NCBI GenBank assembly: GCA_016212475.1
Contig: JACRGC010000009.1
Coordinates: 226,556 to 290,555 of the forward strand
Origin: Candidatus Micrarchaeota archaeon
GTDB lineage: Archaea > Micrarchaeota > Micrarchaeia > Norongarragalinales > SBBD01
Reading direction: 5' to 3'
DNA: 64,000 nucleotides
Shown here: piece after piece, positions 28,380 through 53,298 of the stretch
Numbering within the stretch: the first letter of the stretch is position 1
How the letters are laid out: each line of letters starts with the position of its first letter
Notes under the pieces: generated by a model
Seen by the model: the letters and a program-made list of their open reading frames with translations, nothing else
Told to the model about the DNA's origin: nothing
Database searches by the model: none
Made by a program: the position numbers and the translations under genes

Positions 28380-28754
28380 TCAAAAATTAGACTTTGTTTT
28401 AGCTCCCCGCAAATATCCTAAGCTTGTCGGGATCCTTCTTGATTTCATGCACAAGGTTCGATGGCCCAACAATTGTTGCCCATTTGCCTTCCCCCCAAGC
28501 AATTTGATCAGGCTCTTCCGAACGCTAGATGGCTCTTCCCCAAAGGATGAAATTTCAATTCCGGGAAAATCCTTCGTTATGCCCTCCATTGTCCGCTGGT
28601 AAAGTATGCGCTCCTCCTCCCTTGTCAGCGCCTCTTCCAAAATCAATATTTTCTTTTCCTTCTTCACGGCATTTAGGATATATTTTACCTTATCCTCGAC
28701 ATCCTTGCTCCGCAGAGTTTTGGAACTTACAAATTCAAGCTGCAAACCTGCCAT
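28380..28754 (-). CDS. Small archaeal conserved protein (DUF2073-like)
   Basis: KKILILEEALTREEERILYQRTMEGITKDFPGIEISSF resembles the DUF2073 family that neighbours a small GTPase in Euryarchaeota. Confidence 0.4.
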   Translation of the reverse strand: MAGLQLEFVSSKTLRSKDVEDKVKYILNAVKKEKKILILEEALTREEERILYQRTMEGITKDFPGIEISSFGEEPSSVRKSLIKLLGGKANGQQLLGHRTLCMKSRRIPTSLGYLRGAKTKSNF

Positions 28755-29090
28755 TTATTCTTCCTCCTCTGTTTCATCGTTTTCAAGCGCCCAGCTAAGA
28801 AAGCAAGCGCCAAAATACCAATAAATAAGGCTGAATGTGAGCCCAAGGAACGACATCGCATTTTGGCACTCGATATCGCTAACGCCGCAAAGCTGTGAAA
28901 GGCCAAGAAGGGGCCAGGCCAAAATTGTCATGACCGGCAAGTATATCCAATCCGGCACATCGATCAAAAGGCCCAAAAACACTATGAATAGCAGGAAAAA
29001 TGTCAGCGAGATCTTTTCAAGCGTTGGCTGCAAAAATACAATTCCCCTGCGAAGGATCCTGCCAAATGTTGTTTCTGCCATAATTTTCAT
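28755..29090 (-). CDS. Small membrane protein (3 TM), acidic C-terminus
   Basis: 111 aa; between DUF2073-like gene and GTPase, same strand, overlapping stop/start. Confidence 0.4.
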   Translation of the reverse strand: MKIMAETTFGRILRRGIVFLQPTLEKISLTFFLLFIVFLGLLIDVPDWIYLPVMTILAWPLLGLSQLCGVSDIECQNAMSFLGLTFSLIYWYFGACFLSWALENDETEEEE

Positions 29091-31129
29091 CTTGCATGCT
29101 TTGCTATCATTTCATAAAGCAGGTTCATGTTTTCGCCAGTAAGCGCTGAAACGGACACCACATGGTGCTGCGGGAATGCTTCCCTAACCTTTTCCGGCTT
29201 TGCCTTTTTGCTATCCATCTTGTTTGCCACAATTATGACCGGGATTTTCCTAGCCTCCAAATTCCCTAAAATTGTGATATTTACCTGCGTGAATGGGTCT
29301 TCTGATGAATCCATGACAACAAGGGCGGCATCGACGTTTTCAAGCCATTTGATTGCTTCAATGATTCCTTTCGTAGCCTCCTTTGCCCGGGTTTGCGCTT
29401 CCTCTTTTTTCAATCCATACGCTGAAAATTCCCTGTAATCAACTTTTGTTGCAATCCCTGGCATATCCAAAAGGTTCATCTCAAGCTCCTTGCCTTTTGA
29501 TTTTACAATCACGTGCTCCTTTTTTTGGACCTCCCGAGTTTCATGGGGGATTTCGGAAACTTTCCCAACGGGTTCGCCAAGCCAATCCATTGAAATGCGA
29601 TTGGCCAAACTGGTGTTGTGGACAATCAATCCATCCCAAGTTGTGAACGTGTGGTTTCCATCAACCGTCAAGTCGTAAATATGCCCGTTGTAATCCTGCT
29701 CTTCCAAACTTACAATCTCATCAAAGAATACATCTGCCTCCGAGATTTTTTTAATTGGCGCCAAAATTCCCAGTTCGCCCCATTTTCCTATGATCCCATT
29801 AACCCTATCAACACTTATCCGATTGGCCTTTGCATCCCTGGCAAAATGATATCCTTTCCCATAAAATTGCCTTATTTCAAGCCCCAAATCCTTCCTGGCT
29901 GTTTCCAGCATAGGAACTATTGGGAGTACGTGCACATTTGCCTTGCTGCCAAACTTGCAGATTTCCGCCAATTTTTCCTGCTTTTGACGAAGCGAAAAGC
30001 CAATCTCCCTTGCAAATGCCCTATGGTTTTCGGATCTTAAGATTTCAAGCATAAAATATGTTTTTCCCCTGATTTGCTTATCGCGAATGAGCGAAGGAAT
30101 CCCAAACCTTAGCAGTAGGATTTGCACCCCTCCGACAAGCTCCCTGCTTGCGCTTGAAAGCTCGACTTTCCTTTGCGAGTCCGTATTTCCAGCAACGCTT
30201 CCTTCGCAATCAAACATTGTCCTTAGGAATTCCCTAGCTGTTTCAGTATCCGATAAAAGGATGCTCCTTGGCACCTTCTTGCTTGCCGATAGCCCCGGAT
30301 GCAGATCAAAGCATTTGTGAAGGTATTCTACCAATGATTTGTTGTAAATGTCCATTTGCGGTGTCTTATCCCCCACTTTTTTGTATTTTGCATCGACATT
30401 GAATTCGTGCTTTGCAATGTCCCTGAAGTCCTCCCTGAGGTTTTCGTCTTCGTTGTAAAAGTTGATGTCATTTTTGCCATGGCTTGCCTCGGAAATCGTA
30501 TATGCAAAAAATCTGGCAATGCTTGGGTTCATGCTGAATTGAGGCTTGAATGATTTGGGTGTGTGGTTTTTCATTTTCAATACCATTTCGCCCCCATCCT
30601 CGGAAATGGCAAAACTTTCAGGGATTTTTATTCTCTCAAAATCATGCAATGGAGTAAGGGTGCGAAGCACGGCGACTTGAGCGCCTTCATTTAGATTTCC
30701 TGCCTTTATCTCTTCAACCCCATTTGCTGTAATGGCAATGAATGGATGGTCGGGACTTGCGCAGACGGTTTTGCCGTTCCGTGTCCGTATTTTTATCATC
30801 TTCCCAAAATATTTCTGCCGAAACACGTGCGAAACGGTTTTGAAATCGGTTTTCAGGGTCTCCTTGTTGAATGAGGGCACGACAATTCCAATATCTTCGC
30901 AGGGGATGTAAAGCTCATCTTTTGAAAGATCGCCGCCTTTTTGCGAATGCGCCCTTTCAAAAACTTTTTCGATGTTTTCGTATGTTCCATTTGCAAGAAG
31001 GATCCGCTCCCCTTCTGCAAGGCACTTCCCTGCGTTAGGTGCGCCATAAAACCCTAATCGTATGATTTTTTTCTTTCCAAAAAGGTTTGATAGCCAGCGC
31101 AAAAATCTCCTAAACGGCATGTGGGTCAC
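29087..31129 (-). CDS. Small Ras-like GTP-binding protein interrupted by a 470-aa intein in the P-loop
   Basis: Extein N: ...GFYGAPNAGK | intein | TSLANRI.. reconstitutes Walker A GAPNAGKT; downstream DMPG (G3), NKMD (G4), SAL (G5). Extein total ~210 aa. Confidence 0.8.
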   Translation of the reverse strand: MTHMPFRRFLRWLSNLFGKKKIIRLGFYGAPNAGKCLAEGERILLANGTYENIEKVFERAHSQKGGDLSKDELYIPCEDIGIVVPSFNKETLKTDFKTVSHVFRQKYFGKMIKIRTRNGKTVCASPDHPFIAITANGVEEIKAGNLNEGAQVAVLRTLTPLHDFERIKIPESFAISEDGGEMVLKMKNHTPKSFKPQFSMNPSIARFFAYTISEASHGKNDINFYNEDENLREDFRDIAKHEFNVDAKYKKVGDKTPQMDIYNKSLVEYLHKCFDLHPGLSASKKVPRSILLSDTETAREFLRTMFDCEGSVAGNTDSQRKVELSSASRELVGGVQILLLRFGIPSLIRDKQIRGKTYFMLEILRSENHRAFAREIGFSLRQKQEKLAEICKFGSKANVHVLPIVPMLETARKDLGLEIRQFYGKGYHFARDAKANRISVDRVNGIIGKWGELGILAPIKKISEADVFFDEIVSLEEQDYNGHIYDLTVDGNHTFTTWDGLIVHNTSLANRISMDWLGEPVGKVSEIPHETREVQKKEHVIVKSKGKELEMNLLDMPGIATKVDYREFSAYGLKKEEAQTRAKEATKGIIEAIKWLENVDAALVVMDSSEDPFTQVNITILGNLEARKIPVIIVANKMDSKKAKPEKVREAFPQHHVVSVSALTGENMNLLYEMIAKHAR
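29615..31024 (-). mobile_element. Intein with LAGLIDADG homing-endonuclease domain (in-frame in GTPase gene)
   Basis: Starts Cys (CLAEGERILLANG, block A), block B VCASPDHPF, HEN-like LRTMFDCEGSV, terminal ..LIVHN followed by +1 Thr. Confidence 0.75.
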
Positions 31130-31222: not shown

Positions 31223-32983
31223 TCAGAATGAAAAGCTAATAAGCCCCTTTAATTTCTTGATTTCCTGCAAAATTTCCTTCTCCCCTTCGGTTAGGCTTTG
31301 GAGGTATTTTTTTTCAATAATTTCTATTTCCTCCTCATGAATATCCGTATAGAGGACCTGCTTTTCCTTGACCTGCCTTCCGTATGTGACTCCGGCCATT
31401 GAAATTGCTACTTCCTGGCCCTTCTTTGCCTCTTCAACTGCCTCCTTTTCCGCCTGAATGCCCTGGATTTCGCCAACATATTCTCCCTTATCATCCATCA
31501 GGCGGTTTTCCTTTCTGATCCTGCCTTCCATGATTTGCACCCCAAAAACAGCCGGGTTGCTCACCCTAAAGCAATGGTTTGGCATGAGGAACACTTTTGC
31601 CGGAAGAGTCAGGGTTGAAAATGCGGTTTTTCTCTCTGCACTAAGAAGCTTATCCTTCCATTCCTTGTAGTTCAATATTAAATTGTAAATTATTTTCTCA
31701 TCGAAAATCTTTATCCCTTCAAACTCAGCTAGCGCCCTAACTTCGGAATCAATCTGGGAATGGAACGCAAAAATCACCCCAAGCAATTTGTCTTTTTTCC
31801 CAACGCTTCCGGATTCCATCACATCCTTCTTTAGCACTTTTCCAATCGATGCTGTTCTGATTGGGATTTTTTCCGCATGGAAAAGCTTGACAATTGCTTC
31901 CAAGCTCCCAAGCGCGTCCGCTTTTATGATTACCCCATCATCCTCGCTTGCAACTTCGATTTCACGGATTTCATTTTTCAGCTCAAGTTCGGTTTCAGCT
32001 GCATTTTTCTGCCTATACTCCAAAAACGAAGAACCAACCAGCGCCTCATCTGCAAAGTCGCATGCGATTTTGACTCCTGCAGCTGCAACCGCTTTTTCAA
32101 CCTTCCTGAATTTTGTCTCCCGCTCTTCCGATGATGGCTTAAGTATCGCCTTTACCTTTGATTTGGCAATGTTTCCATCGATTTTAAGGAAAGTGATCAA
32201 ATCGCCCTCTTCCAAAGATCCCTTGTAAATTATCACATCCAATGTTCTTCCAAGCCCCTTCTCATCCTTAACTTCCAAAATCGCGCCCCTTGTCAGCTCC
32301 TCTTCGCTATTTTCCAGCTCTTTTTCCAAAAACCGCTGTGCCAAACCAGAAACGAACAGCAAAACCTCTGAAATCCCTTCGGAAGTCCTGGCGGAAACCG
32401 GAACAATTGCAATCTGCTTTGTGAAATCGGAAACGCGATCAAACCTTTCAGCTGAAAAGCCAAAATCAGATAGCTGGCCAACAAGCTCGTAAATTTTAAT
32501 ATCCAAATTCTCCTGCACATCGTTCCTTTGCAACTTTAGCGCCTCAGAAAAAGATTCCTTATTGGAATTTTTCCAGCCAGACATCGCATCAATTTTAGTT
32601 GCTGCAACTATGAACGGAGTTTTGTACTCTTTTAGGATCCCAATTGCCTCCCTTGTCTGGTTTTGCATTCCCTGATTGATATCGATAACAAGTATTGCAA
32701 TATCGGCAATGCTTCCTCCCCTCTTCCTAAGGTTCACAAACGCCTCGTGCCCCGGCGTATCAATAAAAAGCAGCCCCGGAAGCGTCAAAACGATTTTCAT
32801 CTTCTCAAGCAAATCCCCGGCAAGCATGCGAATTGCAAAAGCCGGAACTTCTGAAGCCGAAACATGCTGGGTAATCCCGCCCGATTCCTTCCCGGCTACA
32901 CCAGATCTTCTGATGGTATCGAGTAGAGTTGTTTTCCCATGATCGACGTGCCCAAGCACGCAAACAATTGGCTGCCTAATCAT
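31223..32983 (-). CDS. infB: Translation initiation factor aIF5B (IF2 homologue)
   Basis: PIVCVLGHVDHGKTTLLD, DTPGHEAF, NKID; 586 aa four-domain architecture. Confidence 0.85.
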   Translation of the reverse strand: MIRQPIVCVLGHVDHGKTTLLDTIRRSGVAGKESGGITQHVSASEVPAFAIRMLAGDLLEKMKIVLTLPGLLFIDTPGHEAFVNLRKRGGSIADIAILVIDINQGMQNQTREAIGILKEYKTPFIVAATKIDAMSGWKNSNKESFSEALKLQRNDVQENLDIKIYELVGQLSDFGFSAERFDRVSDFTKQIAIVPVSARTSEGISEVLLFVSGLAQRFLEKELENSEEELTRGAILEVKDEKGLGRTLDVIIYKGSLEEGDLITFLKIDGNIAKSKVKAILKPSSEERETKFRKVEKAVAAAGVKIACDFADEALVGSSFLEYRQKNAAETELELKNEIREIEVASEDDGVIIKADALGSLEAIVKLFHAEKIPIRTASIGKVLKKDVMESGSVGKKDKLLGVIFAFHSQIDSEVRALAEFEGIKIFDEKIIYNLILNYKEWKDKLLSAERKTAFSTLTLPAKVFLMPNHCFRVSNPAVFGVQIMEGRIRKENRLMDDKGEYVGEIQGIQAEKEAVEEAKKGQEVAISMAGVTYGRQVKEKQVLYTDIHEEEIEIIEKKYLQSLTEGEKEILQEIKKLKGLISFSF

Positions 32984-40348: not shown

Positions 40349-41164
40349 ATGGATCAAAAACCCAAATCAAAGAAACTGGATCTTAGGAACCTCGACCTAT
40401 TTGGCATGGGTGAAAAGAAATTCAACCAAAAAATTTCATCAGATCTCTCATCCGGAGAGCGGGTAGCTACTGGAATTCCGGGCCTTGATGAACTAATTGA
40501 AGGCGGATTTGTCCGCGGAAATGTGATTTTAGTTGCCGGAGATGCAGGCACAGGAAAAAGCACTTTAGCAATGCAATACCTCTACAACGGCGTAACTTTG
40601 TATGGCGAACCCGGAGTGTATTTGACATTTGAGGAAAAAAAGGAAAACCTCTTTAAGAACATGCTAAGATATGGGTGGGATTTGGAAAAACTTGAAGAGC
40701 AAAAGAAGCTGTTGATTTTACAATATCCTCCGCATGATATTGATAGGTTTTTGCTTGAGGGGGAAATAATTGAAGATACAATCAAGGACATGAAAGCAAA
40801 ACGCCTAGTGATCGATTCAATTACCTCCTTTGCCTTGATTTTTGATTCCGAATACAAAAGAAGGATTGGCATCATAAAAGCCCTTGAACTATTCAAGAAA
40901 TGGGGCTGCACAACGCTTCTAACTTCAGAAGCAAATAGCCTCCCAAGCGGGGAAATCCGGGAAAGGTTTAAGCTCGGCTATTTGGCCGATGGATTAGTCA
41001 GGCTCTACAACATCCGGCAAGGGGATGAGCGCCAAAAGGCAATTGAAATTGTCAAAATGAGGGGCATTGCGCACAGCAACATGATCGTCCCATTTGATTT
41101 CAAGCAAAACGGAATCGAGCTCTACCCCAACCAGCCTGTTTTTGGGGGGCTTGAAAGAAAATAA
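40349..41164 (+). CDS. KaiC-like RecA-superfamily ATPase (ArlH/FlaH-like)
   Basis: TGIPGLDELIEGGFVRGNVILVAGDAGTGKSTLAMQY (Walker A), RLVIDS (Walker B); single KaiC domain ~270 aa. Confidence 0.8.
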   Translation: MDQKPKSKKLDLRNLDLFGMGEKKFNQKISSDLSSGERVATGIPGLDELIEGGFVRGNVILVAGDAGTGKSTLAMQYLYNGVTLYGEPGVYLTFEEKKENLFKNMLRYGWDLEKLEEQKKLLILQYPPHDIDRFLLEGEIIEDTIKDMKAKRLVIDSITSFALIFDSEYKRRIGIIKALELFKKWGCTTLLTSEANSLPSGEIRERFKLGYLADGLVRLYNIRQGDERQKAIEIVKMRGIAHSNMIVPFDFKQNGIELYPNQPVFGGLERK

Positions 41165-41239: not shown

Positions 41240-42346
41240 ATGCACGCAAGAGCTAAAACAAAAGCGCAATCATCCCTTGAACTCCTGATAATCTTATCCG
41301 TCGGGCTGGTTTTGCTTGGAATAATTTTTTCAATTTCACAGCAGCGCATCAATTCCTCCCAGCAATCAATTGCCCTCTCATCGGCAAAATCTGCAACTTC
41401 GGCAATATCGGCAGCAGCCGATTCGGTTTATTTTGAAGGCGTTGGGGCAAAACGGCAAGTTAGCATTACAATTCCCGAAGGGACAGTTGCAACTTCAGTA
41501 ACTGCAAACTCGATTTCCATGCGTCTTCAAATTGAAGGCGGGCCAACTGATGCATCCGCAAACACCAATGCTATCCTTTGCAGCAATTCGCAATTACCAA
41601 CAATCCCGGGAACTTATCGCATTTCAGTTGAAAGCTTGGATGGTTGCGTCTTGATTGGAACTGCTTCAAAATTGGAAGTTAGCACAACCCTAATCCAACT
41701 AATTGGCTATGCAAATTCTACTTATAACAAAACCATCAATTATACGAATGCCGGCACATCTCCAATTACTGTAACTCTTCAGCTTTTATTTGCTTCATCT
41801 GATGCGTCGATTTTATTGGCTTCACAATCGGTTTTCACATTAAATCCCAGCGAAAAAATGGAAACAAAGCTAGGAATCGACCTTTTCCCATCTGCAATTG
41901 GAAGCTATTCTGGGCAGCTCAAGGCATTTGGGAGCAATGGCGATAATTTGACAACTTTGATTTCAATTTCAGCTTCGGGCGCAACCTGCTCGCAGCAAAC
42001 CTGCACATCAACTGATGGAGCAGCAGTGATTGAAATCGAAACCTACTCCTCCGCCTCCTACTCTCAAAAGAAGGAAATCTTCGAGCCTCCCGAAACAATT
42101 GAATTAATGGGCGGCAATTGGGATCCAAATTCTGCAATTTCAATTGATGTTAGGGATCCTTCGGATGCATATTCAATTCCAAATTACCCAAAATCCCTAA
42201 CAACAAATTCAACCGGCGGTTTTACCGATTCATTTTCAGCTGCCTCCCTTGGCGCTTCCGATGGCTACATTGCAAAGGCTAGCGGAACCGAACTTGGAAT
42301 CCCAAAGACAAAAACATCAACTTTTGATGCACTTGCCTGCACGTGA
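41240..42346 (+). CDS. Prepilin-like protein with class III signal peptide (368 aa)
   Basis: MHARAKTKAQSSLELLIILSVGLVLLGIIF: K-A-Q cleavage motif + hydrophobic helix with E at +5. Confidence 0.55.
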   Translation: MHARAKTKAQSSLELLIILSVGLVLLGIIFSISQQRINSSQQSIALSSAKSATSAISAAADSVYFEGVGAKRQVSITIPEGTVATSVTANSISMRLQIEGGPTDASANTNAILCSNSQLPTIPGTYRISVESLDGCVLIGTASKLEVSTTLIQLIGYANSTYNKTINYTNAGTSPITVTLQLLFASSDASILLASQSVFTLNPSEKMETKLGIDLFPSAIGSYSGQLKAFGSNGDNLTTLISISASGATCSQQTCTSTDGAAVIEIETYSSASYSQKKEIFEPPETIELMGGNWDPNSAISIDVRDPSDAYSIPNYPKSLTTNSTGGFTDSFSAASLGASDGYIAKASGTELGIPKTKTSTFDALACT

Positions 42347-42353
42347 AACCAAT

Positions 42354-44063
42354 ATGGAAAATAATTTGAAAAGAATAGGAAAATTGGAAGCAATTGCAGC
42401 CTTGCTTTTGATGCTATTTATTTTCCAAAACCTATCGGCTGCATCCGTTTCATACTCGCAAGATGGCCTCCCCTACCTTGCAAACGGCACTTCAACCTCG
42501 TCAATAAATTTCATCAATGCGCAGGATGATGATTCCTTCAACATTTCCCAATCACTTGCAAATACAATCAGTTCATCGACAAACATGGTGTTGAATGGCA
42601 ATTTCACAGCAGGATCACCAACCTCTTGGGCATACGCAGAAACCGATGCTAGCAATCGTGCCAGTTCAACCTTCCTTGCAATAGGGGGGGATATAGAGCC
42701 CGGAAGGTGGCGTTTTCGCCTCTCGGATAATTCAAATGCGCAGGGCTATAGCGTCCAGGGGAATTTGACAAATACCGGCGTTTTTTGGGATGGAACAACC
42801 CCGGTCGATGCAACGCTTAATTTTTCATTCTACAAAAACTACAATACCGCCCCAACTGCCGACGTGGTTTCTGTTTACCTTCTAAGGCCAGATGGCTCCC
42901 AAATCCTGCTTTGGACAAATGCCACAATTTTCAGCAATGCGGTTTTTTCCAGTGTTGGCTTACCAATTTCGCCTGCCTATTTCAACATTGCCGGAACCTA
43001 CCAGATCCGCATGCACAACCGCATAATTACCCCCGCATCCGGCACAATGGCGGTCGATCATTTCTGGGATCAAATTTCCCTCGTATTGCAAAAATCTTCT
43101 TCTTACTATTCCTTTGATGTTTGGCACAACTCCACATCAATCACAACCCCATCCAACCCTGCCCAAATCATAGGAATCAATGCGACTTTAAGGTTCAAGG
43201 CGGATTTTGCAATCACGCCCAAACTGGAAATTTACAATTTCAATTCGGATTTGTGGGTTTCATCCGATTGCTCCCCAACAACAGCAATTGTTGCAAACAC
43301 TTGGTATTTATGGAATTGCGATATTTTATCGTCCGCCTCCCAATACGTCAGCAATGATGCGAACAAGAAATTGAGGGTGCGTTTCTATTCGCCAGATGCC
43401 CAAACTACAATGGCAAACATTTCTTCCGATTTGTTGAATTTCACGGTTTTCTACAATTTACCGCAGGCATATGTTGCAGTTTCAAAGCCATCCTACCAAG
43501 CTTGCGGAAATGCGTATTACCAGTTGAAATTATTTGACAAGAATTTAGTTCCATTCACTTCCGCAGCAACAGTAAATATAACAATTTCCAATTCAACTTC
43601 CTCCCAATTTTCAACCCTTCAATCAGTTGCCGGAGGGGTTTATTCCGGCTCGTATTCCCTAAGCCCCAAGGCAAATTCAGGCAATTGGCAAATCAGCGCA
43701 TTATCGGGTGCATATTCCAATGAGCCATTTTACGTTGCCACAGGGGGGTTGGATGTTTGGAAGATCAATTTGTTATTTTCAGATACAAAAGGAAGATACT
43801 CGCAAAGTTCAAGCATTCCCGTTTCATTCAACATTCTAAATCTCAATGGAATTGAAATTTCTGGTTTGCAGCCAAATGGAAATCTGCTTTTGTTTAGGGA
43901 CAATTCCTTATTTTCAGCCCCAATAGCAGATTATGCAAACGGAACATATTCCTTCCTTCTTGATTTCTCATCCTTAAGCGCCGGTTCATCCCATAAATTA
44001 ACCGTTATGGCAAATTCGAGCGCAATCAATGTTTCCGCTAGCCAGGGATTTTTTGTAATTTAG
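42354..44063 (+). CDS. Large secreted protein (570 aa), possible pilus-associated adhesin
   Basis: N-terminal hydrophobic segment KRIGKLEAIAALLLMLFIF; starts 8 nt after previous stop; ORF track start 42249 overlaps upstream gene. Confidence 0.5.
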   Translation: MENNLKRIGKLEAIAALLLMLFIFQNLSAASVSYSQDGLPYLANGTSTSSINFINAQDDDSFNISQSLANTISSSTNMVLNGNFTAGSPTSWAYAETDASNRASSTFLAIGGDIEPGRWRFRLSDNSNAQGYSVQGNLTNTGVFWDGTTPVDATLNFSFYKNYNTAPTADVVSVYLLRPDGSQILLWTNATIFSNAVFSSVGLPISPAYFNIAGTYQIRMHNRIITPASGTMAVDHFWDQISLVLQKSSSYYSFDVWHNSTSITTPSNPAQIIGINATLRFKADFAITPKLEIYNFNSDLWVSSDCSPTTAIVANTWYLWNCDILSSASQYVSNDANKKLRVRFYSPDAQTTMANISSDLLNFTVFYNLPQAYVAVSKPSYQACGNAYYQLKLFDKNLVPFTSAATVNITISNSTSSQFSTLQSVAGGVYSGSYSLSPKANSGNWQISALSGAYSNEPFYVATGGLDVWKINLLFSDTKGRYSQSSSIPVSFNILNLNGIEISGLQPNGNLLLFRDNSLFSAPIADYANGTYSFLLDFSSLSAGSSHKLTVMANSSAINVSASQGFFVI

Positions 44064-44072
44064 GTTTTTACT

Positions 44073-44474
44073 ATGATAAAAAGGGCCCAATTCAGCTTCG
44101 ATTTGCTTTTGGTTTTAGGAATCATGCTGATAATTTTTCTATTGCTTTTCAATTATTACACTGAAAAAACGCAATCAACAAATTCCCAGCAAAAGCAGTT
44201 CCTAGCAAGGCAAGCCGCATCAGAAATTTCCGAAATTGTCAATTCCGTCTATTTGGGCGGAAATGGCGCCAGTTCCTCGTATTTTCTTCCAACAGATCTA
44301 CAAGGCAGTGATTATAGCCTGACAATTTCCAATCGAAGGGTTGAGATTTTGCTTTATGGAAGTTCAGTTAGCAGTGCCATCCTAACTTCCGGCGTTGCAT
44401 CGCCAGATTTGAATGCAAAAAAAGGCTCGAGCATTGTTTTTGCGAATGTCAACGGAGCCATTACAGTTAATTAG
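44073..44474 (+). CDS. Prepilin-like protein (133 aa)
   Basis: MIKRAQFSFDLLLVLGIMLIIF: R-A-Q class III signal motif. Confidence 0.55.
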   Translation: MIKRAQFSFDLLLVLGIMLIIFLLLFNYYTEKTQSTNSQQKQFLARQAASEISEIVNSVYLGGNGASSSYFLPTDLQGSDYSLTISNRRVEILLYGSSVSSAILTSGVASPDLNAKKGSSIVFANVNGAITVN

Positions 44475-44482
44475 TGATTCAT

Positions 44483-45010
44483 ATGAGAGCCCAGCTTTTT
44501 TCATTTGATTTGATCCTTAGCGTTTCCATACTTCTTTTGCTGTTTGGCATTACGGTTTCAATTTTTAGCAGGACCGATGCAGTAATGAAAGAAAACGCAA
44601 TAGAAAAGGAGATTTCCCAAAATGGCAATTACGCCCTCTCTTCCCTAATTGAAACAAGCGGCTATCCAACCAATTGGGAGCAACTTGCATTTACCGATTC
44701 AAATGCAAAAGCCTTGGGCCTTGCAACAAGCGCTGGACATCTAAACCCCCAAAAAGTTGGCAAATTCTTCGAGCTTGCAAATTCAAATGAGAATAATTAC
44801 CTTTTGACAAAACGCATCCTTGGAATTGATTTTCCTTCCAGCAATTATACCCTTGAAATTTACGATCTGGAAGGGGAAAAAGTTTACTCCACAACCTTTG
44901 CGTCAAATAATGCTATTGCAAATTCGTATTCAATTTACGCCTTCCAGCGGCTTGCGCTCCTAAATAATCAACCGGTTAGATTATCGCTTAGGATCTGGGT
45001 GAAAAAATGA
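44483..45010 (+). CDS. Prepilin-like protein (~175 aa), paralogue of preceding gene
   Basis: MRAQLFSFDLILSVSILLLLFG, same RAQ.FSFDL motif; GTG at 44474 would overlap previous stop. Confidence 0.55.
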   Translation: MRAQLFSFDLILSVSILLLLFGITVSIFSRTDAVMKENAIEKEISQNGNYALSSLIETSGYPTNWEQLAFTDSNAKALGLATSAGHLNPQKVGKFFELANSNENNYLLTKRILGIDFPSSNYTLEIYDLEGEKVYSTTFASNNAIANSYSIYAFQRLALLNNQPVRLSLRIWVKK

Positions 45011-45411
45011 GGGGCATACTTTTCTCAACGGACGCCGTTTTAGCGCTTCTGGTTTCCATGCTCTTCATAGGCTATATTTTCCATTCCCTCTCATTAATAG
45101 AATCAGCCAAGCCAAGAATGGAAAGCCTCCAAAAAATATCCGGGGATTTTTTGCAAATACTTGAGGAGGATGGTTCGCTAAAAATGTCTATGGAATCAAA
45201 TTCGGATATTCCAATTGTTAATGATGGCCGCATTTTGCCTTCCAATTTATGCTATGAGCTAATTCTTACATCGAAGGATTCGCAATCTCCCCTGATATCC
45301 TCTTCAAATTGCGCCTGCAAGGATTTTGTCCTTTCAAGAAGGAGCTTCATCGCATCGAATGGAACTGCCCAAGCAGAACATTTTGCCGAACTTAAAACAT
45401 GCTACAAGTGA
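45007..45411 (+). CDS. Prepilin-like protein (134 aa)
   Basis: MRGILFSTDAVLALLVSMLFIGYIF: R-G cleavage motif, D at +5; ATGA overlap with previous gene. Confidence 0.5.
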   Translation: MRGILFSTDAVLALLVSMLFIGYIFHSLSLIESAKPRMESLQKISGDFLQILEEDGSLKMSMESNSDIPIVNDGRILPSNLCYELILTSKDSQSPLISSSNCACKDFVLSRRSFIASNGTAQAEHFAELKTCYK

Positions 45412-45416
45412 AAATT

Positions 45417-46217
45417 ATGAAAAAAGGGATTTTCTTCACATTGCTCTTTTCACTCCTGCTGCTTCTTTGCCTTTCGGCAATTTTGTTCTATATCGATCAT
45501 CAGAAGGGGGAGAATCCAAGCGCACTTAAGGTTTCAAAATACTCCACAATTGCAAATGGTATTTCATCCGATCTGTTGGAACTTGGCAAAATTTCCAACA
45601 TGGCAATTGTTAGAAATTCAACCCATGCAATCATTTCCTTAACTTCCGACCTTACCCCTAATGAGCCCCCAAACTATTCAATATACGGAGCATTTGTCGA
45701 AGGGGAATATGCTAAAAAGCAAAACCTAGCCGGCAAATTGGTTTTAACCACTTCACAAAACCCTTTCATCTATTTTGATGGCATTTCCGCCAATTTTTCA
45801 TTTTCCAACGATTCTTCCAAATTGGAAGGGAGCGTAGCAATCGATGGCTATGAACTGCATTTCTACAATTTATCGGAAGTTCTGCAATCCTGCGGATGGA
45901 CTTCAAGCGCATCCGGCAGCCTAAGCGTAAAAATCACCTTTGATTCCCTAAATTGCCCATCCCAAATTGTAAGCATAAATCCCCAAATTCAAAACAAATT
46001 CTTCCTAAACACCTCCTCTGGAAAATACCTAAACATTACATTTGGAAATGTTGCGCTTTTTGACAATTCATTCGATTTGAAAATTGGCAATTTAAATGCC
46101 TCCTACGATTTGAACATCTCCGCTCAAACATCAAATCCGGTAAGCGGGAAATTATCCGCAAAACTGGAATTCGTTGGCGATTACACCTTGCAATCACTTC
46201 TTGTTTTGCAAGGATAA
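45417..46217 (+). CDS. Prepilin-like/secreted protein (~266 aa)
   Basis: MKKGIFFTLLFSLLLLLCLSAILFYI (K-G motif + hydrophobic helix); ORF track start 45399 overlaps the previous gene. Confidence 0.45.
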   Translation: MKKGIFFTLLFSLLLLLCLSAILFYIDHQKGENPSALKVSKYSTIANGISSDLLELGKISNMAIVRNSTHAIISLTSDLTPNEPPNYSIYGAFVEGEYAKKQNLAGKLVLTTSQNPFIYFDGISANFSFSNDSSKLEGSVAIDGYELHFYNLSEVLQSCGWTSSASGSLSVKITFDSLNCPSQIVSINPQIQNKFFLNTSSGKYLNITFGNVALFDNSFDLKIGNLNASYDLNISAQTSNPVSGKLSAKLEFVGDYTLQSLLVLQG

Positions 46218-46757: not shown

Positions 46758-47333
46758 TCATTTTGAAATCCTAATTACCTTATCGCAAAACTGCGAAAGA
46801 TCCGAAATCAATTTCTGGTCCGATTCCTTTTCCATCGAAACCATTATCATTCCAACGTTCCAAATCCGCATCTTGGAAACCAAAAAATGCGTGAACTGCG
46901 CAACCGTCCCGGCTGAATTGTAAATCAGCATTGTAGAGAGGGAATCCATGAATATAAAACGATCTCCCGCAGTATCGCCCATTCTCTCAACCAGCTGTGT
47001 TAGGGCAATGCTAAGCTCGGTTAAATTCCTAGGCGATGGCAAAAAAATGCAATTTTCAGTCCTTTCGCCGCGCTTTCCGGTTGTTTGCGTAATCAAATCA
47101 AGGAAATACAGCCTATCCACATCGATTTTTTCCTTTGCAAGGGATGCCAATAGCGTTTCGTAAGGCCGGTTGAACGTTACGTAAATTCCTTCTGAATTTC
47201 CCTGCTTCATCAGCAATTTCAGCGCATTTTGGTTGGCATTTAGGTATTTTTCAGAATCCGAAACGAGCATCACAATGTAGTGCCTTGGAAGCTCCCGCAG
47301 TTCCTTTTCCAGTTTAGATAGCAAATCCGCCAT
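46758..47333 (-). CDS. RecA-superfamily (KaiC/RadA-like) protein lacking a canonical Walker A motif
   Basis: 191 aa; beta-alpha pattern ending RFIFMDSLSTMLIYNS (Walker B-like hhhhD) and GMIMVSMEKES, but no GxxxxGK[ST]. Confidence 0.4.
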   Translation of the reverse strand: MADLLSKLEKELRELPRHYIVMLVSDSEKYLNANQNALKLLMKQGNSEGIYVTFNRPYETLLASLAKEKIDVDRLYFLDLITQTTGKRGERTENCIFLPSPRNLTELSIALTQLVERMGDTAGDRFIFMDSLSTMLIYNSAGTVAQFTHFLVSKMRIWNVGMIMVSMEKESDQKLISDLSQFCDKVIRISK

Positions 47334-47728: not shown

Positions 47729-47848
47729 GTATCTGATGATCTTTTACGATCTATTTATTTCTTTCGGTTTTTCTGTTTGTTCCTTCTTCCTAGTTCCAGA
47801 TCCCCAAATCAACATATTTTTATAGCTCCCCGCAATACTTGCTATCAT

Positions 47849-49687
47849 ATGGACGCCATTCCCCCCCGCCCCAAATCATCAAAGCTTCATGGATCTGAAT
47901 TTGTCTCAAAAGAGCATGCACCCCTTTTTCGGACTAAAATAACCCAGCTTTGCGAAAACTTGGAAGGCAAGAAAAACCGCGAGGAAAATTTTGAATCGCT
48001 TGCAAAAGAACTATCCATTTCAACAAATGAAATTGAACGGCTTGGGAAAATCCTCCAAGAGCAGGGAATTTTGGAGCTAAACTATCCAGTCAACATACTC
48101 TCCCGCCCCTCTGTTAGGCTGATTCAAAAGCTAGAGCAGCCGCATTCCGAAAAAATCGGCGGAGAAAAACTCCTCCTCTCATATCCACTATCTGCCCATA
48201 ATGTCCCAGCTTCAGTTGAAATTTGGCAAATGCATGATTCGAGCCGCCCAATTTACGCCCTTCATCACCCTCTTGTTTGCATCTACACAGAAAAATTCCT
48301 AAATTTCCTTCGGGATACGCTTGCAAAATCCCTTCCGGTTGAAACCGACGAAATTGTTGATAAGGGAAAATTTGCAAAACTAATGGATAGGTTTTACGCA
48401 GCCTCGCTTGAACTAATTGATAAGGAGCTTCCTTCAATTCCAGAGCACGAAAAGAAAGCGCTTGCCGGGATCATGCTCCATAGGATGTATGGCCTTGGAG
48501 ACATCGAACTTTTGATGGCTGATGATAATTTGGAGGAAATTTCCATAAACGGCTCGAATTCCCCCCTTGGGGTTTACCATCGAACATACGGCTGGCTCAA
48601 AACAAATTTGCATATGCGAAGCGAGGAGGAAGTTTACAATTACGCGGCCCAAATCGGAAGGAAATCGGGCAGGGAAATTTCCATGCTCTCCCCAATTCTT
48701 GATGCCGCCCTTGTTTCCGGTGATCGTGTCTCTGCAACCCTCTTTCCAATCTCATCAAATGGCAACACAATTACTATTAGAAGATTTGCAAGGAACCCTT
48801 GGACAATTTCTGGAATAGTTTCTGAAAAATCGCATACCATGTCAACAGAAATGGCGTCTTTCCTCTGGCTAGCAACGCAATACGAAATGAATATTTTAGT
48901 TGCAGGTGGAACTGCCTCTGGAAAAACCTCAACTCTTAACACCCTAGCGGCGCTAATCCCTCCCTCGCAGCGCATTGTTTCAATTGAAGATACTCGTGAA
49001 ATTACACTTCCATCCTATCTCCACTGGAACTGGGTTCCGCTTCTAACAAGAGGCGAAAATCCCGAAGGAAAGGGAAGGATTTCCATGCTTGATTTGATGG
49101 TTGAAAGTCTTAGGATGCGCCCCGACAGAGTAATTGTTGGAGAAGTTCGCCGCAAGCGCGAAGCTGAAGTGATGTTTGAAGCAATGCACACGGGGCACGC
49201 CGTCTATTCGACAATTCATGCCGATTCCGCTTCCCAAGTTGTCCGAAGATTGCTTGAGCCCCCAATTGAAATTCCGCGGCTTGAACTTGAATCCCTCCAG
49301 CTAATCGTTGTGCAGTACCGCGACCGAAGAAAAGGCCTTCGAAGAACCTATGAAATTTCAGAAATCACGCAAGGATCATCCGAATCTTCCGGCTTAAATC
49401 TCAACACGCTTTTCAAATGGCGTCCGAGGACCGATGCATTTGAAAAAGTCAACGAAAGCTCGCGTGTTTTTGCCGAGCTTAATTTGCACTCCGGAATGAC
49501 AATTTCCGAAATCCAAGAAGATCTTTTGCAAAAGCAAAAAATACTCGAATGGATGATTTCAAGGAATGTTTTTTCATCCGATGATGTTGGATCCATAATG
49601 GGCGCTTATTACAAGAATCCGCAAGAAATTTTCGAAGCTGCCAAAAAAAATTCAAACCCCGCAGATGTTGTTGCATTCAAGGTGTGA
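47849..49687 (+). CDS. Type IV pilus/archaellum assembly ATPase (PilB/GspE/ArlI-FlaI family)
   Basis: Walker A VAGGTASGKTSTLNTLA, Asp box IVSIEDTREI, Walker B RPDRVIVGEVR, His box; N-terminal extension; ORF track start 47777, ATG at 47849 preferred. Confidence 0.85.
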   Translation: MDAIPPRPKSSKLHGSEFVSKEHAPLFRTKITQLCENLEGKKNREENFESLAKELSISTNEIERLGKILQEQGILELNYPVNILSRPSVRLIQKLEQPHSEKIGGEKLLLSYPLSAHNVPASVEIWQMHDSSRPIYALHHPLVCIYTEKFLNFLRDTLAKSLPVETDEIVDKGKFAKLMDRFYAASLELIDKELPSIPEHEKKALAGIMLHRMYGLGDIELLMADDNLEEISINGSNSPLGVYHRTYGWLKTNLHMRSEEEVYNYAAQIGRKSGREISMLSPILDAALVSGDRVSATLFPISSNGNTITIRRFARNPWTISGIVSEKSHTMSTEMASFLWLATQYEMNILVAGGTASGKTSTLNTLAALIPPSQRIVSIEDTREITLPSYLHWNWVPLLTRGENPEGKGRISMLDLMVESLRMRPDRVIVGEVRRKREAEVMFEAMHTGHAVYSTIHADSASQVVRRLLEPPIEIPRLELESLQLIVVQYRDRRKGLRRTYEISEITQGSSESSGLNLNTLFKWRPRTDAFEKVNESSRVFAELNLHSGMTISEIQEDLLQKQKILEWMISRNVFSSDDVGSIMGAYYKNPQEIFEAAKKNSNPADVVAFKV

Positions 49688-49689
49688 AA

Positions 49690-50616
49690 ATGAACCTCTT
49701 CCTCTTCCGCTATGGAGGCATACTCAATGGAAAACTTAGGCGCTTTGTTGGCCTTGGATCAAAAATTGGGAACATGATCCCGGGTTTAAAATTTGACCTC
49801 CAAGAAGCCGGCTATGTCGCTTCAGTTGGCGAATACACCGCAGCAGCCCTTGCAAATTCCTTCTTTTACTCCCTAACTTTGTTCCTAATCCTCTCCTTTG
49901 CCTTGCTAATCCGCGCCACTTCTTCCAACGCCTTTCCAGTTGATGTTTCAAACGAATCAATTGTTTCCCTATTTCTTACTTTAAAACTGGCCTTTGCTTC
50001 CGCATTTGCCTTCTTTTTCATGTTCTTCTTTTTCTTTCTTTTCTATCCAAAAGTTGAAGCTAGGAAAATTGCCGAAAATGTCGACCGCGATTTAATTTAC
50101 GCACTTAAAGATATGCAGCTTCAAATTTCCTCCGGAGTTTCACTCTATGACGCCCTTGCAAATGTTTCCAAATCCGATTACGGCAGGGTTTCACGCGAAT
50201 TTGAAATTGCAGTCAAGGACATTTCAGCCGGAGGCGCTGAGGATAAGGCTCTTGAAAAAATTGCAGAGCGGACCGAATCCGAATTCATGCGAAAGACAAT
50301 TTGGCAAATGCTAACTTCCCTTCGGGCAGGGACTCCAGTTGATGGCGCTCTCAAAAACACAATTGCTTCCCTAAACAACCACCAAAGGCAGCAAATAAAG
50401 GAATTTTCCTCGGAATTGAATGTTTTAAGTTTGCTTTACATGCTCTTTGCAGTGGCAATTCCGGGCCTTGGCTCAACTCTTCTGATTGTGCTCTCATCAT
50501 TTGGCGGAATAAAAGTCAACGAGCTGTTCTATGTTGCAATAATTTCCTCCTGCTTTTTTGTAGAAGCGATAATAATTGGCTTCATCAGAAGCAGGCGGCC
50601 GGCGGTGCATGCATAA
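49690..50616 (+). CDS. T2SSF-domain membrane protein (N-terminal half of TadC/ArlJ-like platform protein)
   Basis: One GspF/T2SSF domain (DLIYALKDMQLQISSGVSLYDALANVS...ALKNTIASL) flanked by TM helices; ends with TAA directly followed by in-frame ATG of next gene. Confidence 0.7.
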   Translation: MNLFLFRYGGILNGKLRRFVGLGSKIGNMIPGLKFDLQEAGYVASVGEYTAAALANSFFYSLTLFLILSFALLIRATSSNAFPVDVSNESIVSLFLTLKLAFASAFAFFFMFFFFFLFYPKVEARKIAENVDRDLIYALKDMQLQISSGVSLYDALANVSKSDYGRVSREFEIAVKDISAGGAEDKALEKIAERTESEFMRKTIWQMLTSLRAGTPVDGALKNTIASLNNHQRQQIKEFSSELNVLSLLYMLFAVAIPGLGSTLLIVLSSFGGIKVNELFYVAIISSCFFVEAIIIGFIRSRRPAVHA

Positions 50617-51876
50617 ATGGCTAAAAATCAAAATAAAAAATCCAGAAGGAAAAAAGCGAATGCAGCTGCTGCTTCCCAAAACGTAAATCAACAAATCATC
50701 CAAACAATTGCAACAAAAAAAACTGAAGCTCAAAAAACCAATCCTGCAATTGGCCCAAAGGATGGCTCCAAAATCGCATCCCCAATTACTCTTAATACTT
50801 CTGCTTTTTCAACTGTAAAATCGCCAATCCGCCAGCCAAGCATCAAGGCATATGTCCCTGCGCAAGTTCAAGGCAAAGGATTCATGCCCGGCATCTATTT
50901 CTTCCTCTCAAAATTTGCAACGCGCTCGCAAAAACAATCCCTTCGGGAAAAAATGCTTTTGGCAGGGATCGATTCTGAAGCAGAGCTTTGGCTTGGCGAG
51001 GTTTTGCTTCTCTCAAAGCTTTGCGCATTTGCTACATTCATGCTATTCTGGGTGATTTTCAAGGAAGCCCTGATTTTCAAGCTTTTACTATTTGCATTCA
51101 TTGCATTTGGCTTGGTGCTATTTACTGCTGTAATTCATTTAAACATCCGGATTGAAGATAGGAAAAACCGCCTTGAAGCCATACTTCCGGATGCAATGCA
51201 GGTTATTTCTGCAAACATCAGGTCCGGAATGTCACCGGTTGTTGCTCTTCGAGCGTCTGCTCGCCCGGAATTTGGCCCATTGCAAGAAGACATTAAATAC
51301 GCAACAACAAAATCCCTAGGCACCGGCTCTTTTTCAGATGCGCTAAATGAAATGGGTAAAAAAACCTCATCCGAACTATTTCAGCGAATAGTTGCACTAT
51401 TTTCTGCCTCCCTAAGGTCCGGAGGCAAATTAGCATCCCTCCTTGAAAATACCGCAAATGATATCCGAGACACCCAAGAACTAAAACGCGAACTTGTTTC
51501 AAACACGAGGCTTTACGCTATTTTCATCATCTTCACGGTTGTAATTGGAACCCCCCTCCTTTTGGCAGTTTCAATCCAATTCGGGAGCATGGTAAACAAT
51601 TTGCAGGCAAAAACCTCTTCCGGAAGCATTGCTTCTGATTTCACAACAATTCCATTGATCAGCTCTCCTTTGAAGCAGGATTTCCTTGAGCACTCCGCCT
51701 TTGTGATTTTATTGATAACTACTTTCCTAGCTTCCGCCCTTCTAGGTGTCATGAATAACGGCTCCTACGCATCCGGACTTAAGTATTTTCCGGCTCTTTC
51801 AATTGCCGCAGTTTTGTTTTTCATCTTTATGAAGGATTTTGCCCTAAAAGCGATCCTTCCAATTGCTGGAATTTGA
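50617..51876 (+). CDS. T2SSF-domain membrane protein (C-terminal half of TadC/ArlJ-like platform protein)
   Basis: Second T2SSF domain (LPDAMQVISANIRSGMSPVVALRAS...LLENTANDIRDT) with TM helices; Lys/Ala/Gln-rich low-complexity N-terminus. Confidence 0.7.
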   Translation: MAKNQNKKSRRKKANAAAASQNVNQQIIQTIATKKTEAQKTNPAIGPKDGSKIASPITLNTSAFSTVKSPIRQPSIKAYVPAQVQGKGFMPGIYFFLSKFATRSQKQSLREKMLLAGIDSEAELWLGEVLLLSKLCAFATFMLFWVIFKEALIFKLLLFAFIAFGLVLFTAVIHLNIRIEDRKNRLEAILPDAMQVISANIRSGMSPVVALRASARPEFGPLQEDIKYATTKSLGTGSFSDALNEMGKKTSSELFQRIVALFSASLRSGGKLASLLENTANDIRDTQELKRELVSNTRLYAIFIIFTVVIGTPLLLAVSIQFGSMVNNLQAKTSSGSIASDFTTIPLISSPLKQDFLEHSAFVILLITTFLASALLGVMNNGSYASGLKYFPALSIAAVLFFIFMKDFALKAILPIAGI

Positions 51877-52661: not shown

Positions 52662-52845
52662 CTTTTTATCTCATTTATTTGAGGTATTTCGCATTTAACC
52701 CAAATTCACATTAAGTATAATGAGTTGGCTAATAAATTATTTCTTTTTTTATGAAGCCACTGCTTAACTATCCTGATTCGCCGTTTTCGATACCTTTAAA
52801 TATCGCTAAAAACTTAAAGCAATCAATATTCGAGAAGGTGGTTTG

Positions 52846-53298
52846 ATGAAATTAAGAGCGCAAGCAGCAGTAGAATATCTTATGATTTTGGCGGTAGTAA
52901 TCATTATCGCACTCGTAGTAGTTGGAGTCCTTGGGGGCTTCCCATCATTAACGGCTGGGATTTCCGAAAAGGAATCGGCGGCATACTGGACAACAGCTGA
53001 TGTAGGGATTGTTAGAACTTACGTATCGGGAGCTGCTGTACAAATGGTTCTTAGGAATAACAAGAACTTTGCAATAGAAGTTACTGGGGTGGATGTTGGT
53101 ACTGGTACCATCGCATCGATTTCAAAAACCTTGCAGCCAGGAGAAACAACAACCTTGACGCCCGTGTTTACTTTGACCACAGCATGCGTGGCAGGTGCTT
53201 CGTTTTCCTATAATACGGTTGTAACTTACAAGGATTCGACGTATAGTACTGCTTACACCTTTACCGGTGCCAAGCCACTTGTTGGAGTTTGCCAATAA
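52846..53298 (+). CDS. Archaeal type IV pilin (DUF361-type N-terminus), major pilin candidate
   Basis: MKLRAQAAVEYLMILAVVIIIALVVVGVL: class III signal, R-A|Q cleavage, E at +5; SD GGTG 5 nt upstream of ATG 52846 (ORF track start is TTG 52843); Thr/Ser/Gly-rich beta C-domain with C-terminal Cys pair. Confidence 0.7.
   Translation: MKLRAQAAVEYLMILAVVIIIALVVVGVLGGFPSLTAGISEKESAAYWTTADVGIVRTYVSGAAVQMVLRNNKNFAIEVTGVDVGTGTIASISKTLQPGETTTLTPVFTLTTACVAGASFSYNTVVTYKDSTYSTAYTFTGAKPLVGVCQ

Follow-up and report, generated by a model that had tools for sequence, protein, structure and literature searches.

Adjoining genes for two single-T2SSF platform subunits, separated by an in-frame TAA-ATG junction, in a probable type IV pilus locus of Candidatus Micrarchaeota

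Two consecutive genes on the forward strand of a Candidatus Micrarchaeota (DPANN) contig, designated here A (49690..50616) and B (50617..51876), very probably encode separate, co-transcribed inner-membrane platform subunits of an archaeal type IV pilus machine; both lie in a 64,000-nt stretch of DNA, analysed as a whole and referred to below as the window. The boundary between them, where a TAA stop codon is directly followed by an ATG in the same frame, is an ordinary, previously described gene arrangement and represents neither a broken gene nor a recoding event. The observations behind this reading are the domain content of the two proteins, the conservation of the split, the variable frames of orthologous junctions, the retention of the stop in independent assemblies and a codon bias favouring a Shine-Dalgarno (SD)-like motif.

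Pfam searches clearly indicate that both proteins belong to the T2SSF (GspF/PilC/TadB-TadC/ArlJ) superfamily, with PF00482 above the gathering threshold (25.2 bits) in each. Protein A (308 aa, about four transmembrane helices by hydropathy, identical to NCBI protein P0001) contains a T2SSF domain at residues 141-261 (E 2e-16, 60.6 bits), and protein B (419 aa, about five transmembrane helices by hydropathy, identical to NCBI MBI5224990.1) contains one at residues 195-318 (E 6.8e-17, 62.0 bits). Aligned over 223 columns (hhalign 98.4%), A and B prove to be paralogous repeats. In the NCBIfam models of ArlJ and UpsF it is the C-terminal half that B covers (268-538 of 555 and 278-443 of 484, respectively), and B appears closer to TadB and, among two-domain platform proteins, to their C-terminal half. 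A search of the PDB by sequence was uninformative (A had no match at E<1, and the B profile gave spurious matches only, at E ~0.7-0.9), so the fold of A was compared instead; the best Foldseek matches of its AF2 model (pLDDT 80.9) were the cytoplasmic domains of EpsF, OutF, PilC-N and TcpE (probability 1.00, TM-score (target) 0.63-0.71), and the model has the helical-bundle cytoplasmic fold of GspF/PilC. Prediction places the C-terminal tail of A, RSRRPAVHA, in the cytoplasm.

Read directly in the sequence, the A/B boundary is ...GTG CAT GCA TAA ATG GCT AAA..., with the TAA at 50614-50616 and the ATG at 50617-50619 (50614..50619, + strand) and a 0-nt gap; the start-to-start distance of 927 nt (309 codons) places both genes in a common frame. 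The first-pass annotation, made from the sequence alone, had described two T2SSF ORFs in one frame with this TAA, followed by ATG, as their sole separator, and it was accurate on each of these points, exactly one Pfam T2SSF domain being present in each ORF. Of the four explanations it offered, fission with translational coupling stands, though only in the sense of a two-gene arrangement that is ancient and shared by the whole family, and not as an event at the present locus; nonsense mutation, sequencing error and readthrough do not, no fusion being found at any of 77 orthologous loci. All three stop codons, TAA, TGA and TAG, are in normal use in the window, where TAA ends 17 of 50 ORFs, and stop-codon reassignment was rejected on this ground. 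Another zero-gap TAA-ATG junction is present elsewhere in the window (28752-28757, minus strand).

A mistake in sequencing or assembly at 50614, by which one gene would have acquired a spurious stop, would account for the in-frame geometry, and nothing more speaks for it. An independent Logan assembly of SRR12113407 (L085) has exactly the same junction, and a 95%-identical Hainich groundwater population, represented by four separate assemblies (L081-L084; two from ENA and two from Logan), keeps GCATAAATGG with synonymous changes on both sides, which excludes both a sequencing error and a recent nonsense mutation. Split genes are, in addition, the norm of the family, and we give such an error next to no credence.

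The database contained 54 homologues of A (all 194-312 aa) and 71 of B (all 258-469 aa), and contigs of equal length in the two sets suggest that A-B homologue pairs sit on the same contigs. Comparison of orthologues for fused versus split architecture, as proposed in the first-pass annotation, revealed no fusion among these 125 homologues; at 77 of 77 informative DPANN loci, from genomes of Micrarchaeota, Woesearchaeota, Altiarchaeota, Nanoarchaeota and Aenigmatarchaeota, A is terminated by a stop codon and B is the next gene on the same strand. The gaps, for which B was taken to start at the nearest ATG from stop-30 onwards, a heuristic that may bias them short, were -4 nt (ATGA) at 16 loci, -1 nt (TAATG/TGATG) at nine, +1 nt at nine and +4 nt at eight, with a further zero-gap junction, TAGATG, at a single locus (L016) and other values at the rest; 55 of the 77 fell within -8..+10 nt. 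Relative to A, B is in frame 0 at 13 loci, +1 at 25 and +2 at 39, and the in-frame adjacency of the two genes is thus at or below the chance level. The split, kept throughout the orthologues in varied junction frames, is no lineage-specific lesion, and the position of the A C-terminus (RRPxV-x-x-stop) is kept family-wide. Among the nearest relatives in the genome collection (67-72% identity), five of six are in frame +2, with ATGA (4-nt) or TGATG (1-nt) overlaps, which indicates that the split is ancestral. Single-domain proteins of ~290 aa make up 147 of the best 150 representatives; a fused homologue of 706 aa, P0157, a singleton in the cluster look-up, comes from the Altiarchaeota MAG GCA_043820265.1 and indicates that a fused architecture is viable in this platform family.

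P0157, and two in-frame ORFs with one stop between them, are what a recent nonsense mutation could appeal to, one that would have split a single two-domain gene now pseudogenised or in the act of fission. The orthologue comparison, with all 77 loci split, refutes it: the ancestor was already split, as the overlaps in another frame in the closest relatives show, the stop position is conserved, the same TAA is present in the diverged (95%) population, and both ORFs are intact, with invariant residues conserved in the alignments. The probability left to such a mutation is negligible.

Programmed readthrough of the TAA, yielding some fused A-B protein alongside the separate ones, is permitted by the zero-gap in-frame arrangement, and the cytoplasmic C-terminal tail of A and cytoplasmic N-terminal tail of B would be topologically compatible with such a product, a fused homologue (P0157) being known. 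However, the stop is not a conserved in-frame recoding stop, as the in-frame geometry occurs at the above 13 loci only and most close relatives are in other frames; no readthrough element is evident at the junction, TAA is a normal stop in the window, and an ATG preceded by an SD-like motif is a canonical start. TAA is also generally held to be the least leaky stop codon, and we judge readthrough very improbable. In a bolder version, few ribosomes would read through, giving separate A and B plus a fused A-B protein like P0157; independently of this, the N-terminal tail of B might serve Micrarchaeota pili as a novel module for regulation or ATPase docking. This version, too, is quite improbable.

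Under the reading of A and B as separate subunits, the TAA at 50614 is the true stop of A, and B is translated from the adjoining ATG. An SD-like GGCGGTG lies at 50601..50607 (+ strand), within the last codons of A (R-P-A-V) and 9 nt upstream of the B ATG; SD-like 4-mers are found upstream of 18 of the 50 ORFs of the window, versus a background of 7.7%. The first-pass annotation had held that consistently split orthologues with an independent ribosome-binding site would mark an ordinary two-gene arrangement, and this is the situation observed. In the family, AGG accounts for 0.56 of the Arg codons at the RRP motif versus 0.36 elsewhere (p 1e-5), and GTG for 0.59 of the Val codons in the A tail versus 0.28 elsewhere (p 1e-9), although these Fisher tests overstate independence, the loci being related; a family-wide codon bias at the 3' end of A thus appears to maintain the SD-like motif, and RRPxV, a conserved protein motif, would serve also as the ribosome-binding site of the next gene. 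Termination-reinitiation coupling is supported experimentally for gaps of -8..+10 nt, a range enriched for heteromeric complexes (PMC10666635). Initiation of B probably occurs by such coupling, aided by GGCGGTG, which would yield a stoichiometry of about 1:1. Each protein would contribute one T2SSF repeat, and, by analogy with homologous systems and from the geometry of the junction, A and B probably assemble into a heteromer, most likely the pseudo-twofold unit made elsewhere by a single two-domain PilC/ArlJ protein; this unit would dock under the FlaI/TadA-like ATPase encoded just upstream.

Protein B begins with a basic, clade-specific N-terminal tail (residues 1-89, 50617..50883, + strand), delimited by alignment, open frame and composition. 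Its low-complexity, Lys/Ala/Gln-rich character, pointed out previously, is borne out by the composition of residues 1-88 (16 K+R, 2 D+E, 13 A and 9 Q). The accompanying proposal, that this segment of ~90 aa was the linker of a fused protein, fails: most family members have no such tail, and a remnant inter-domain linker was rejected for the same reason. Perhaps most translation of B begins at the internal Met90 (50884-50886), the 89 codons before it being a little-used or non-functional upstream extension; Met90 is conserved in nine of 11 long-form sequences of the alignment, where it falls only a few residues from the point at which the short-form relatives (318-350 aa) start. However, the frame of the tail is open in five of five taxa, with a chance openness of 0.0005-0.02 per taxon and two to six stops in each of the other two frames, the tail carries a conserved SP(V/I)HQxP motif and in-frame indels, and its first 12 residues, MxKNxNKKSRRK, are kept in the 95% relative despite nucleotide changes, all of which makes a start at Met90 unlikely.

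The neighbourhood of the two genes is that of a pilus machine. A FlaI/TadA-family secretion ATPase (T2SSE, Pfam 1.5e-34; 612 aa) is encoded at 47849..49687 (+ strand), its TGA stop lying 2 nt upstream of the start of A; the mechanically defined ORF begins with a TTG at 47777, and the ATG at 47849 is the likely start, in line with the gene called in the independent assembly L085, likewise of 612 aa. Further upstream, an operon (41240..46217, + strand) encodes pilin-like proteins that bear class III signal peptides (41240..42346, 44073..44474, 44474..45010, 45007..45411 and 45399..46217) and an MG2-domain protein (42249..44063, Pfam MG2 3.3e-8). The pilin-like N-termini in the translations are ...KAQSSLELLIIL, MIKRAQFSFDLLLVL, MRAQLFSFDLIL, MRGILFSTDAVL and MKKGIFFTLLF. 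A candidate major pilin of 151 aa, MMKLRAQAAVEYLMILAVVIII..., is encoded at 52843..53298 (+ strand; Class_IIIsignal E 0.03, sub-threshold). No Pfam pilin model exceeded its threshold for these ORFs, so the pilin assignment is based on the N-terminal signal-peptide pattern; in total, six ORFs no more than 9 kb away have N-termini that resemble class III signal peptides. A KaiC/FlaH(ArlH)-like accessory ATPase (40349..41164, + strand; Pfam KaiC 8e-59) precedes the pilin operon, and a degenerate KaiC-like/DUF7504 protein (46758..47333, - strand; DUF7504 1.4e-10, KaiC 4.5e-7) is encoded between this operon and the secretion ATPase. Taken together, the pilins, one KaiC-like and one FlaI/TadA-like ATPase and the two platform subunits make up a Micrarchaeota operon for type IV pili, a function that we infer.

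As the junction is no pseudogene, error or recoding site, the Micrarchaeota pilus machinery encoded here is to be taken as intact. In DPANN archaea, type IV pili are candidate organelles of host attachment, which makes an intact locus relevant to genome-based inference of DPANN lifestyles. The split platform architecture reaches across many DPANN lineages; the in-frame zero-gap junction described here is one point mutation away from the fused architecture, which was seen once, in the Altiarchaeota MAG.

The two-gene platform arrangement is already known. Both T2SSF domains reside in one polypeptide in T4aP, T2SS and the archaellum, and this rule breaks down in Tad and Epd systems and in several clades of archaeal T4P (PMC6668835, PMC4858521); the earlier premise that platform proteins are normally two-domain chains holds for the former systems and not for the latter. 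ArlJ/FlaJ, PilC and GspF share with A and B the T2SSF repeat, the fold and a hexameric T2SSE ATPase partner, but have both repeats in one chain of ~400-570 aa, whereas here they are spread over two. A and B score 14.8-33.4 bits against NCBIfam cut-offs of 400-570 for the ArlJ equivalog, a single two-domain polypeptide. Platforms encoded by two single-T2SSF genes have been described for Tad (TadB/TadC) and Epd (EpdJ/EpdK) (PMC6668835) and for archaeal T4P clades 1, 2 and 4B (PMC4858521), and A and B, contiguous same-strand paralogues with one T2SSF domain each, have this layout.

In the bacterial Tad (type IVc) system, TadB/TadC (CpaG/CpaH) are likewise encoded by two contiguous single-T2SSF genes just downstream of a TadA/CpaF-type ATPase, and the pair has been attributed to the ancient splitting of a platform gene with two domains (PMC6668835). 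Comparison with one bacterial locus, the Pontibacillus Tad locus found through the lone weak tblastn match of B among plasmids, used single-sequence templates (hhalign): B matched the TadB-position gene at 97% (E 9e-11) and the TadC-position gene at 64%, and the values for A, 91% versus 83%, leave its TadB/TadC assignment ambiguous. If A is TadC-like, the order here is ATPase, TadC-like, TadB-like, the reverse of bacterial tadA-tadB-tadC. Unlike bacterial Tad loci, the present one belongs to a DPANN host, has archaeal class III pilins and is without TadZ, secretin, TadE/F and Flp genes.

The Epd pilus of Methanococcus maripaludis (Epd-like clade; Makarova clade 1), likened here by its description, also has two PilC/TadC-like paralogues, EpdJ and EpdK, beside an ATPase, EpdL. 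EpdJ and EpdK are both needed for piliation, and a requirement for both subunits and a heteromer are known for EpdJ/EpdK and TadB/TadC (PMC4371748). Epd, like the present locus, has an associated FlaH/KaiC-like secondary ATPase (PMC6668835), and the pilin signal peptides here, often (K/R)-A-Q, resemble the RAQ/KGQ processing sites of Epd pilins (PMC4371748). Unlike in Epd, no EppA-type peptidase was identified within the 64,000-nt window, and clade 1 has been described for methanogens and Thermococci only (PMC4858521).

Many clade 2 euryarchaeal loci, this clade including a few Nanoarchaea, and clade 4B loci have two tadC-like genes beside the ATPase (PMC4858521); the 2016 census (Makarova et al. 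2016) was without Micrarchaeota and most DPANN lineages (PMC4858521). The likeness to clades 2 and 4B lies in these two genes and fits the present ATPase, which is nearest to FlaI-like models; any clade membership is putative. Since this ATPase scores higher on the FlaI-like NCBIfam model (286 bits) than on the TadA family model (168 bits), both below the equivalog cut-offs, the A/B split may be that of a different archaeal clade in which tadC-like genes come in pairs (PMC4858521), or may represent an independent fission.

The two neighbouring T2SSF-domain ORFs A (49690..50616, forward strand, 308 aa) and B (50617..51876, forward strand, 419 aa) constitute an ordinary two-gene platform, ancestral and already annotated, in an archaeal type IV pilus operon, with stop and start tightly coupled at the junction. 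Positions 50605-50625 read GTG CAT GCA TAA ATG GCT AAA, the TAA at 50614-50616 being the sole separator of the ORFs, which have a common reading frame and one Pfam T2SSF domain each (E 2e-16 for A and 6.8e-17 for B); the sequence and the Pfam hits bear out the first-pass annotation in its description of two same-frame ORFs parted only by TAA and then ATG. Each ORF exactly matches an NCBI entry from a Candidatus Micrarchaeota (DPANN archaeon) MAG, in which the pair already bears the annotation of two 'type II secretion system F family' proteins. The reverse strand has a further zero-gap in-frame TAA-ATG junction at 28752..28757, with GAGGAGG ahead of it, between ORFs 28755..29090 and 28380..28754, which shows that junctions of this type recur in the genome. 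Also on the reverse strand, a GTPase ORF (MMR_HSR1 / GTP_EFTU; 29087..31129), adjoined by the aIF5B/IF-2 gene (31223..32983), contains an intein (Intein_splicing, 4e-24) carrying a LAGLIDADG homing-endonuclease domain (LAGLIDADG_3, 2e-23).

Compared for fused versus split architecture, the orthologues show a split that is old. The A homologues (54/54) are 194-312 aa long and the B homologues (71/71) 258-469 aa, with identities from 100% down to about 30% (25% for one B match), and no fused protein of ~700 aa was found among them. The A stop and B start were located in 80 related reference-genome loci of Micrarchaeota, Woesearchaeota, Altiarchaeota, Nanoarchaeota, Aenigmatarchaeota and others; in all 77 informative loci the A stop is followed by a same-strand B homologue, and a fused A-B gene was found in none of the 77. 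The junctions include ATGA overlaps (16 loci), TAATG/TGATG (9), 0 nt (one locus, L016), +1 nt (9) and +4 nt (8), with the longest spacing at ~1.1 kb, and the frame of B relative to A is 0 in 13, +1 in 25 and +2 in 39 loci. With all the loci split and the frames varying, the earlier reading of one platform gene interrupted by a stop codon is not upheld. Among the six nearest relatives in the genome collection, five (L001-L004 and L008, 67-72% identity) have ATGA or TGATG overlaps, so that A and B are in different frames there and the ancestor was therefore already split; in the sixth, L005, A and B are in frame with a 27-nt gap. The in-frame geometry of the window is one of many equivalent junctions, without enrichment.

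Several observations accompany the survey. In loci L065, L067 and L072 (two Altiarchaeota MAGs and one unclassified archaeon), the best B homologue is non-adjacent, ~1 kb downstream of A, which points to either an inserted gene or a second pair of platform genes. DPANN-type ATPase-A-B operons were also found on contigs L027, L028, L034, L036, L041, L042 and others, with MAG labels including Methanosarcinales, 'Aminicenantes bacterium' and 'Sulfurovum sp.'; these are likely mis-binned or mislabelled DPANN contigs, horizontal transfer being less likely. The homologue P0194, an A-type platform subunit of 413 aa, has an acidic-rich insertion of ~120 residues before the last transmembrane helix, presumably an extracellular domain.

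When 1.84 billion representative proteins were searched with a profile, 147 of the best 150 matches were single-domain proteins; the three exceptions are a variant with a loop insertion, one with an extended N-terminus and a fused 706-aa protein. The fused protein, P0157 (MFH1721265.1), is encoded at 117..2237 of contig L086 (GCA_043820265.1, JBDREA010000024.1; Candidatus Altiarchaeota MAG) and contains A-type and B-type T2SSF repeats in one ORF, its junction ...KSRRPSILGDSESTEEEKQF... reading straight through without stop or ATG. It forms a singleton cluster on one contig, and either a real secondary fusion or an assembly error could account for it. P0157 makes a fused form at least conceivable, and a zero-gap in-frame junction such as that in the window is one substitution away from it. 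Low-level readthrough yielding a fused product, or a new function of the basic tail of B, is very improbable.

The first-pass annotation had also considered a sequencing error or a recent nonsense mutation, and both are excluded. The junction is identical in L085, an independent Logan assembly of SRR12113407, and GCATGCATAAATGG is kept in four separate assemblies of a Hainich groundwater population, where the A protein is 95% identical, despite synonymous substitutions in the flanking codons. Since TGA, TAA and TAG all serve as stops (20, 17 and 13 window ORFs, respectively), there is no sign of codon reassignment in the window ORFs.

The C-terminus of A follows the family-wide pattern (S/K)RRPxV-x-x-stop, with R303 and P304 invariant, and the codons of this motif contain an SD-like GGCGGTG (50601-50607, forward strand), 9 nt before the ATG; in relatives, the SD-like sequence at the 3' end of A is typically AGGAGGCCnnnGGTG. 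In related loci, which are non-independent samples, AGG accounts for 56% of the Arg codons of the C-terminal motif vs 36% in the rest of gene A (p 1e-5), and GTG for 59% of the Val codons in the A tail vs 28% elsewhere (p 1e-9). SD-like 4-mers precede 18/50 window ORFs, against a background of 7.7%. [quoted passage not shown] We infer that translation of A and B is coupled with the assistance of the embedded SD: ribosomes ending A at TAA would re-start on the adjoining ATG of B.

As the first-pass annotation noted, B begins with a low-complexity segment; the first 88 residues of this basic tail include 16 K+R and 2 D+E. In alignment A3 of B and its relatives, the tail comprises 89 residues (50617..50883, forward strand) and is present only in the closest Micrarchaeota clade, where B has 401-470 aa vs 318-350 aa elsewhere. 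The open frame in 5/5 taxa tested (other frames contain stops), the in-frame indels and the conserved SP(V/I)HQxP motif common to all tailed relatives show the tail to be truly coding; several relatives also have a heptad-like EIExLKxEIxxVExxI segment. The start codon of short-form relatives lies opposite Met90 (50884-50886) in the alignment, and an alternative start there is therefore possible. Confinement to the closest clade marks the tail as a lineage-specific addition, not a relic linker of the kind the first-pass annotation envisaged for a fused protein.

The locus is an archaeal type IV pilus gene cluster. A FlaI/TadA-family ATPase gene on the same strand (T2SSE, 1.5e-34) stops 2 nt before the ATG of A; further upstream, in a tightly packed operon, products begin with class III (pilin-type) signal peptides, e.g., MIKRAQFSFDLLLVL and MRAQLFSFDLIL, and a candidate major pilin (MMKLRAQAAVEYLMIL...) is encoded downstream of B. 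Two large, secreted or surface-type proteins with weak MG2 (alpha-2-macroglobulin-like) matches, one inside the pilin operon (42249..44063, forward strand) and one of 1719 aa (18925..24084, reverse strand), may be pilus-associated adhesins. The pilin operon is flanked by a canonical KaiC/FlaH-like ATPase with a Walker A motif (40349..41164, forward strand; KaiC, 8e-59) and a degenerate DUF7504/KaiC-like protein (46758..47333, reverse strand; Pfam); both may be regulators of the pilus machine, as proposed for KaiC-family proteins (Makarova et al. 2016, PMC4858521).

hhalign (98.4%) identifies A and B as paralogous repeats. In its AlphaFold model (pLDDT 80.9), A has a cytoplasmic helical bundle between two transmembrane hairpins; the best PDB matches of the model are the cytoplasmic domains of EpsF, OutF, PilC and TcpE. 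Hydropathy, with four transmembrane segments in A and about five in B, suggests that both termini of A and the strongly basic N-tail of B are cytoplasmic. This would place the boundary between the genes where a cytoplasmic linker would be, a position whose topological equivalent in single-chain platforms is the linker joining the two repeats. By inference from TadB/TadC and EpdJ/EpdK, where both members are needed for piliation (PMC4371748), A and B most likely form a heteromeric platform coupling the ATPase to pilin extraction and assembly.

This two-gene architecture is of an established kind, whether the DPANN split shares the Tad/Epd fission, belongs to clade 2 of Makarova et al. or arose independently. 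In Tad and Epd-like systems the platform is systematically encoded by two neighbouring genes, each with a single T2SSF domain, a state put down to an ancient fission; TadC is like the N-half, TadB like the C-half (Denise et al. 2019, PMC6668835). Among archaeal T4P loci, two tadC-like genes are noted for clades 1 and 4B and for many loci of clade 2 (Makarova et al. 2016, PMC4858521). For the window ATPase, the FlaI model gives a better score than the TadA model, and the ArlJ and UpsF models align with B over their C-terminal half. In comparison with a bona fide Tad locus of Pontibacillus, A is ambiguous (91% vs 83%), whereas B favours the TadB-position gene (97%, E 9e-11) over the TadC-position gene (64%).
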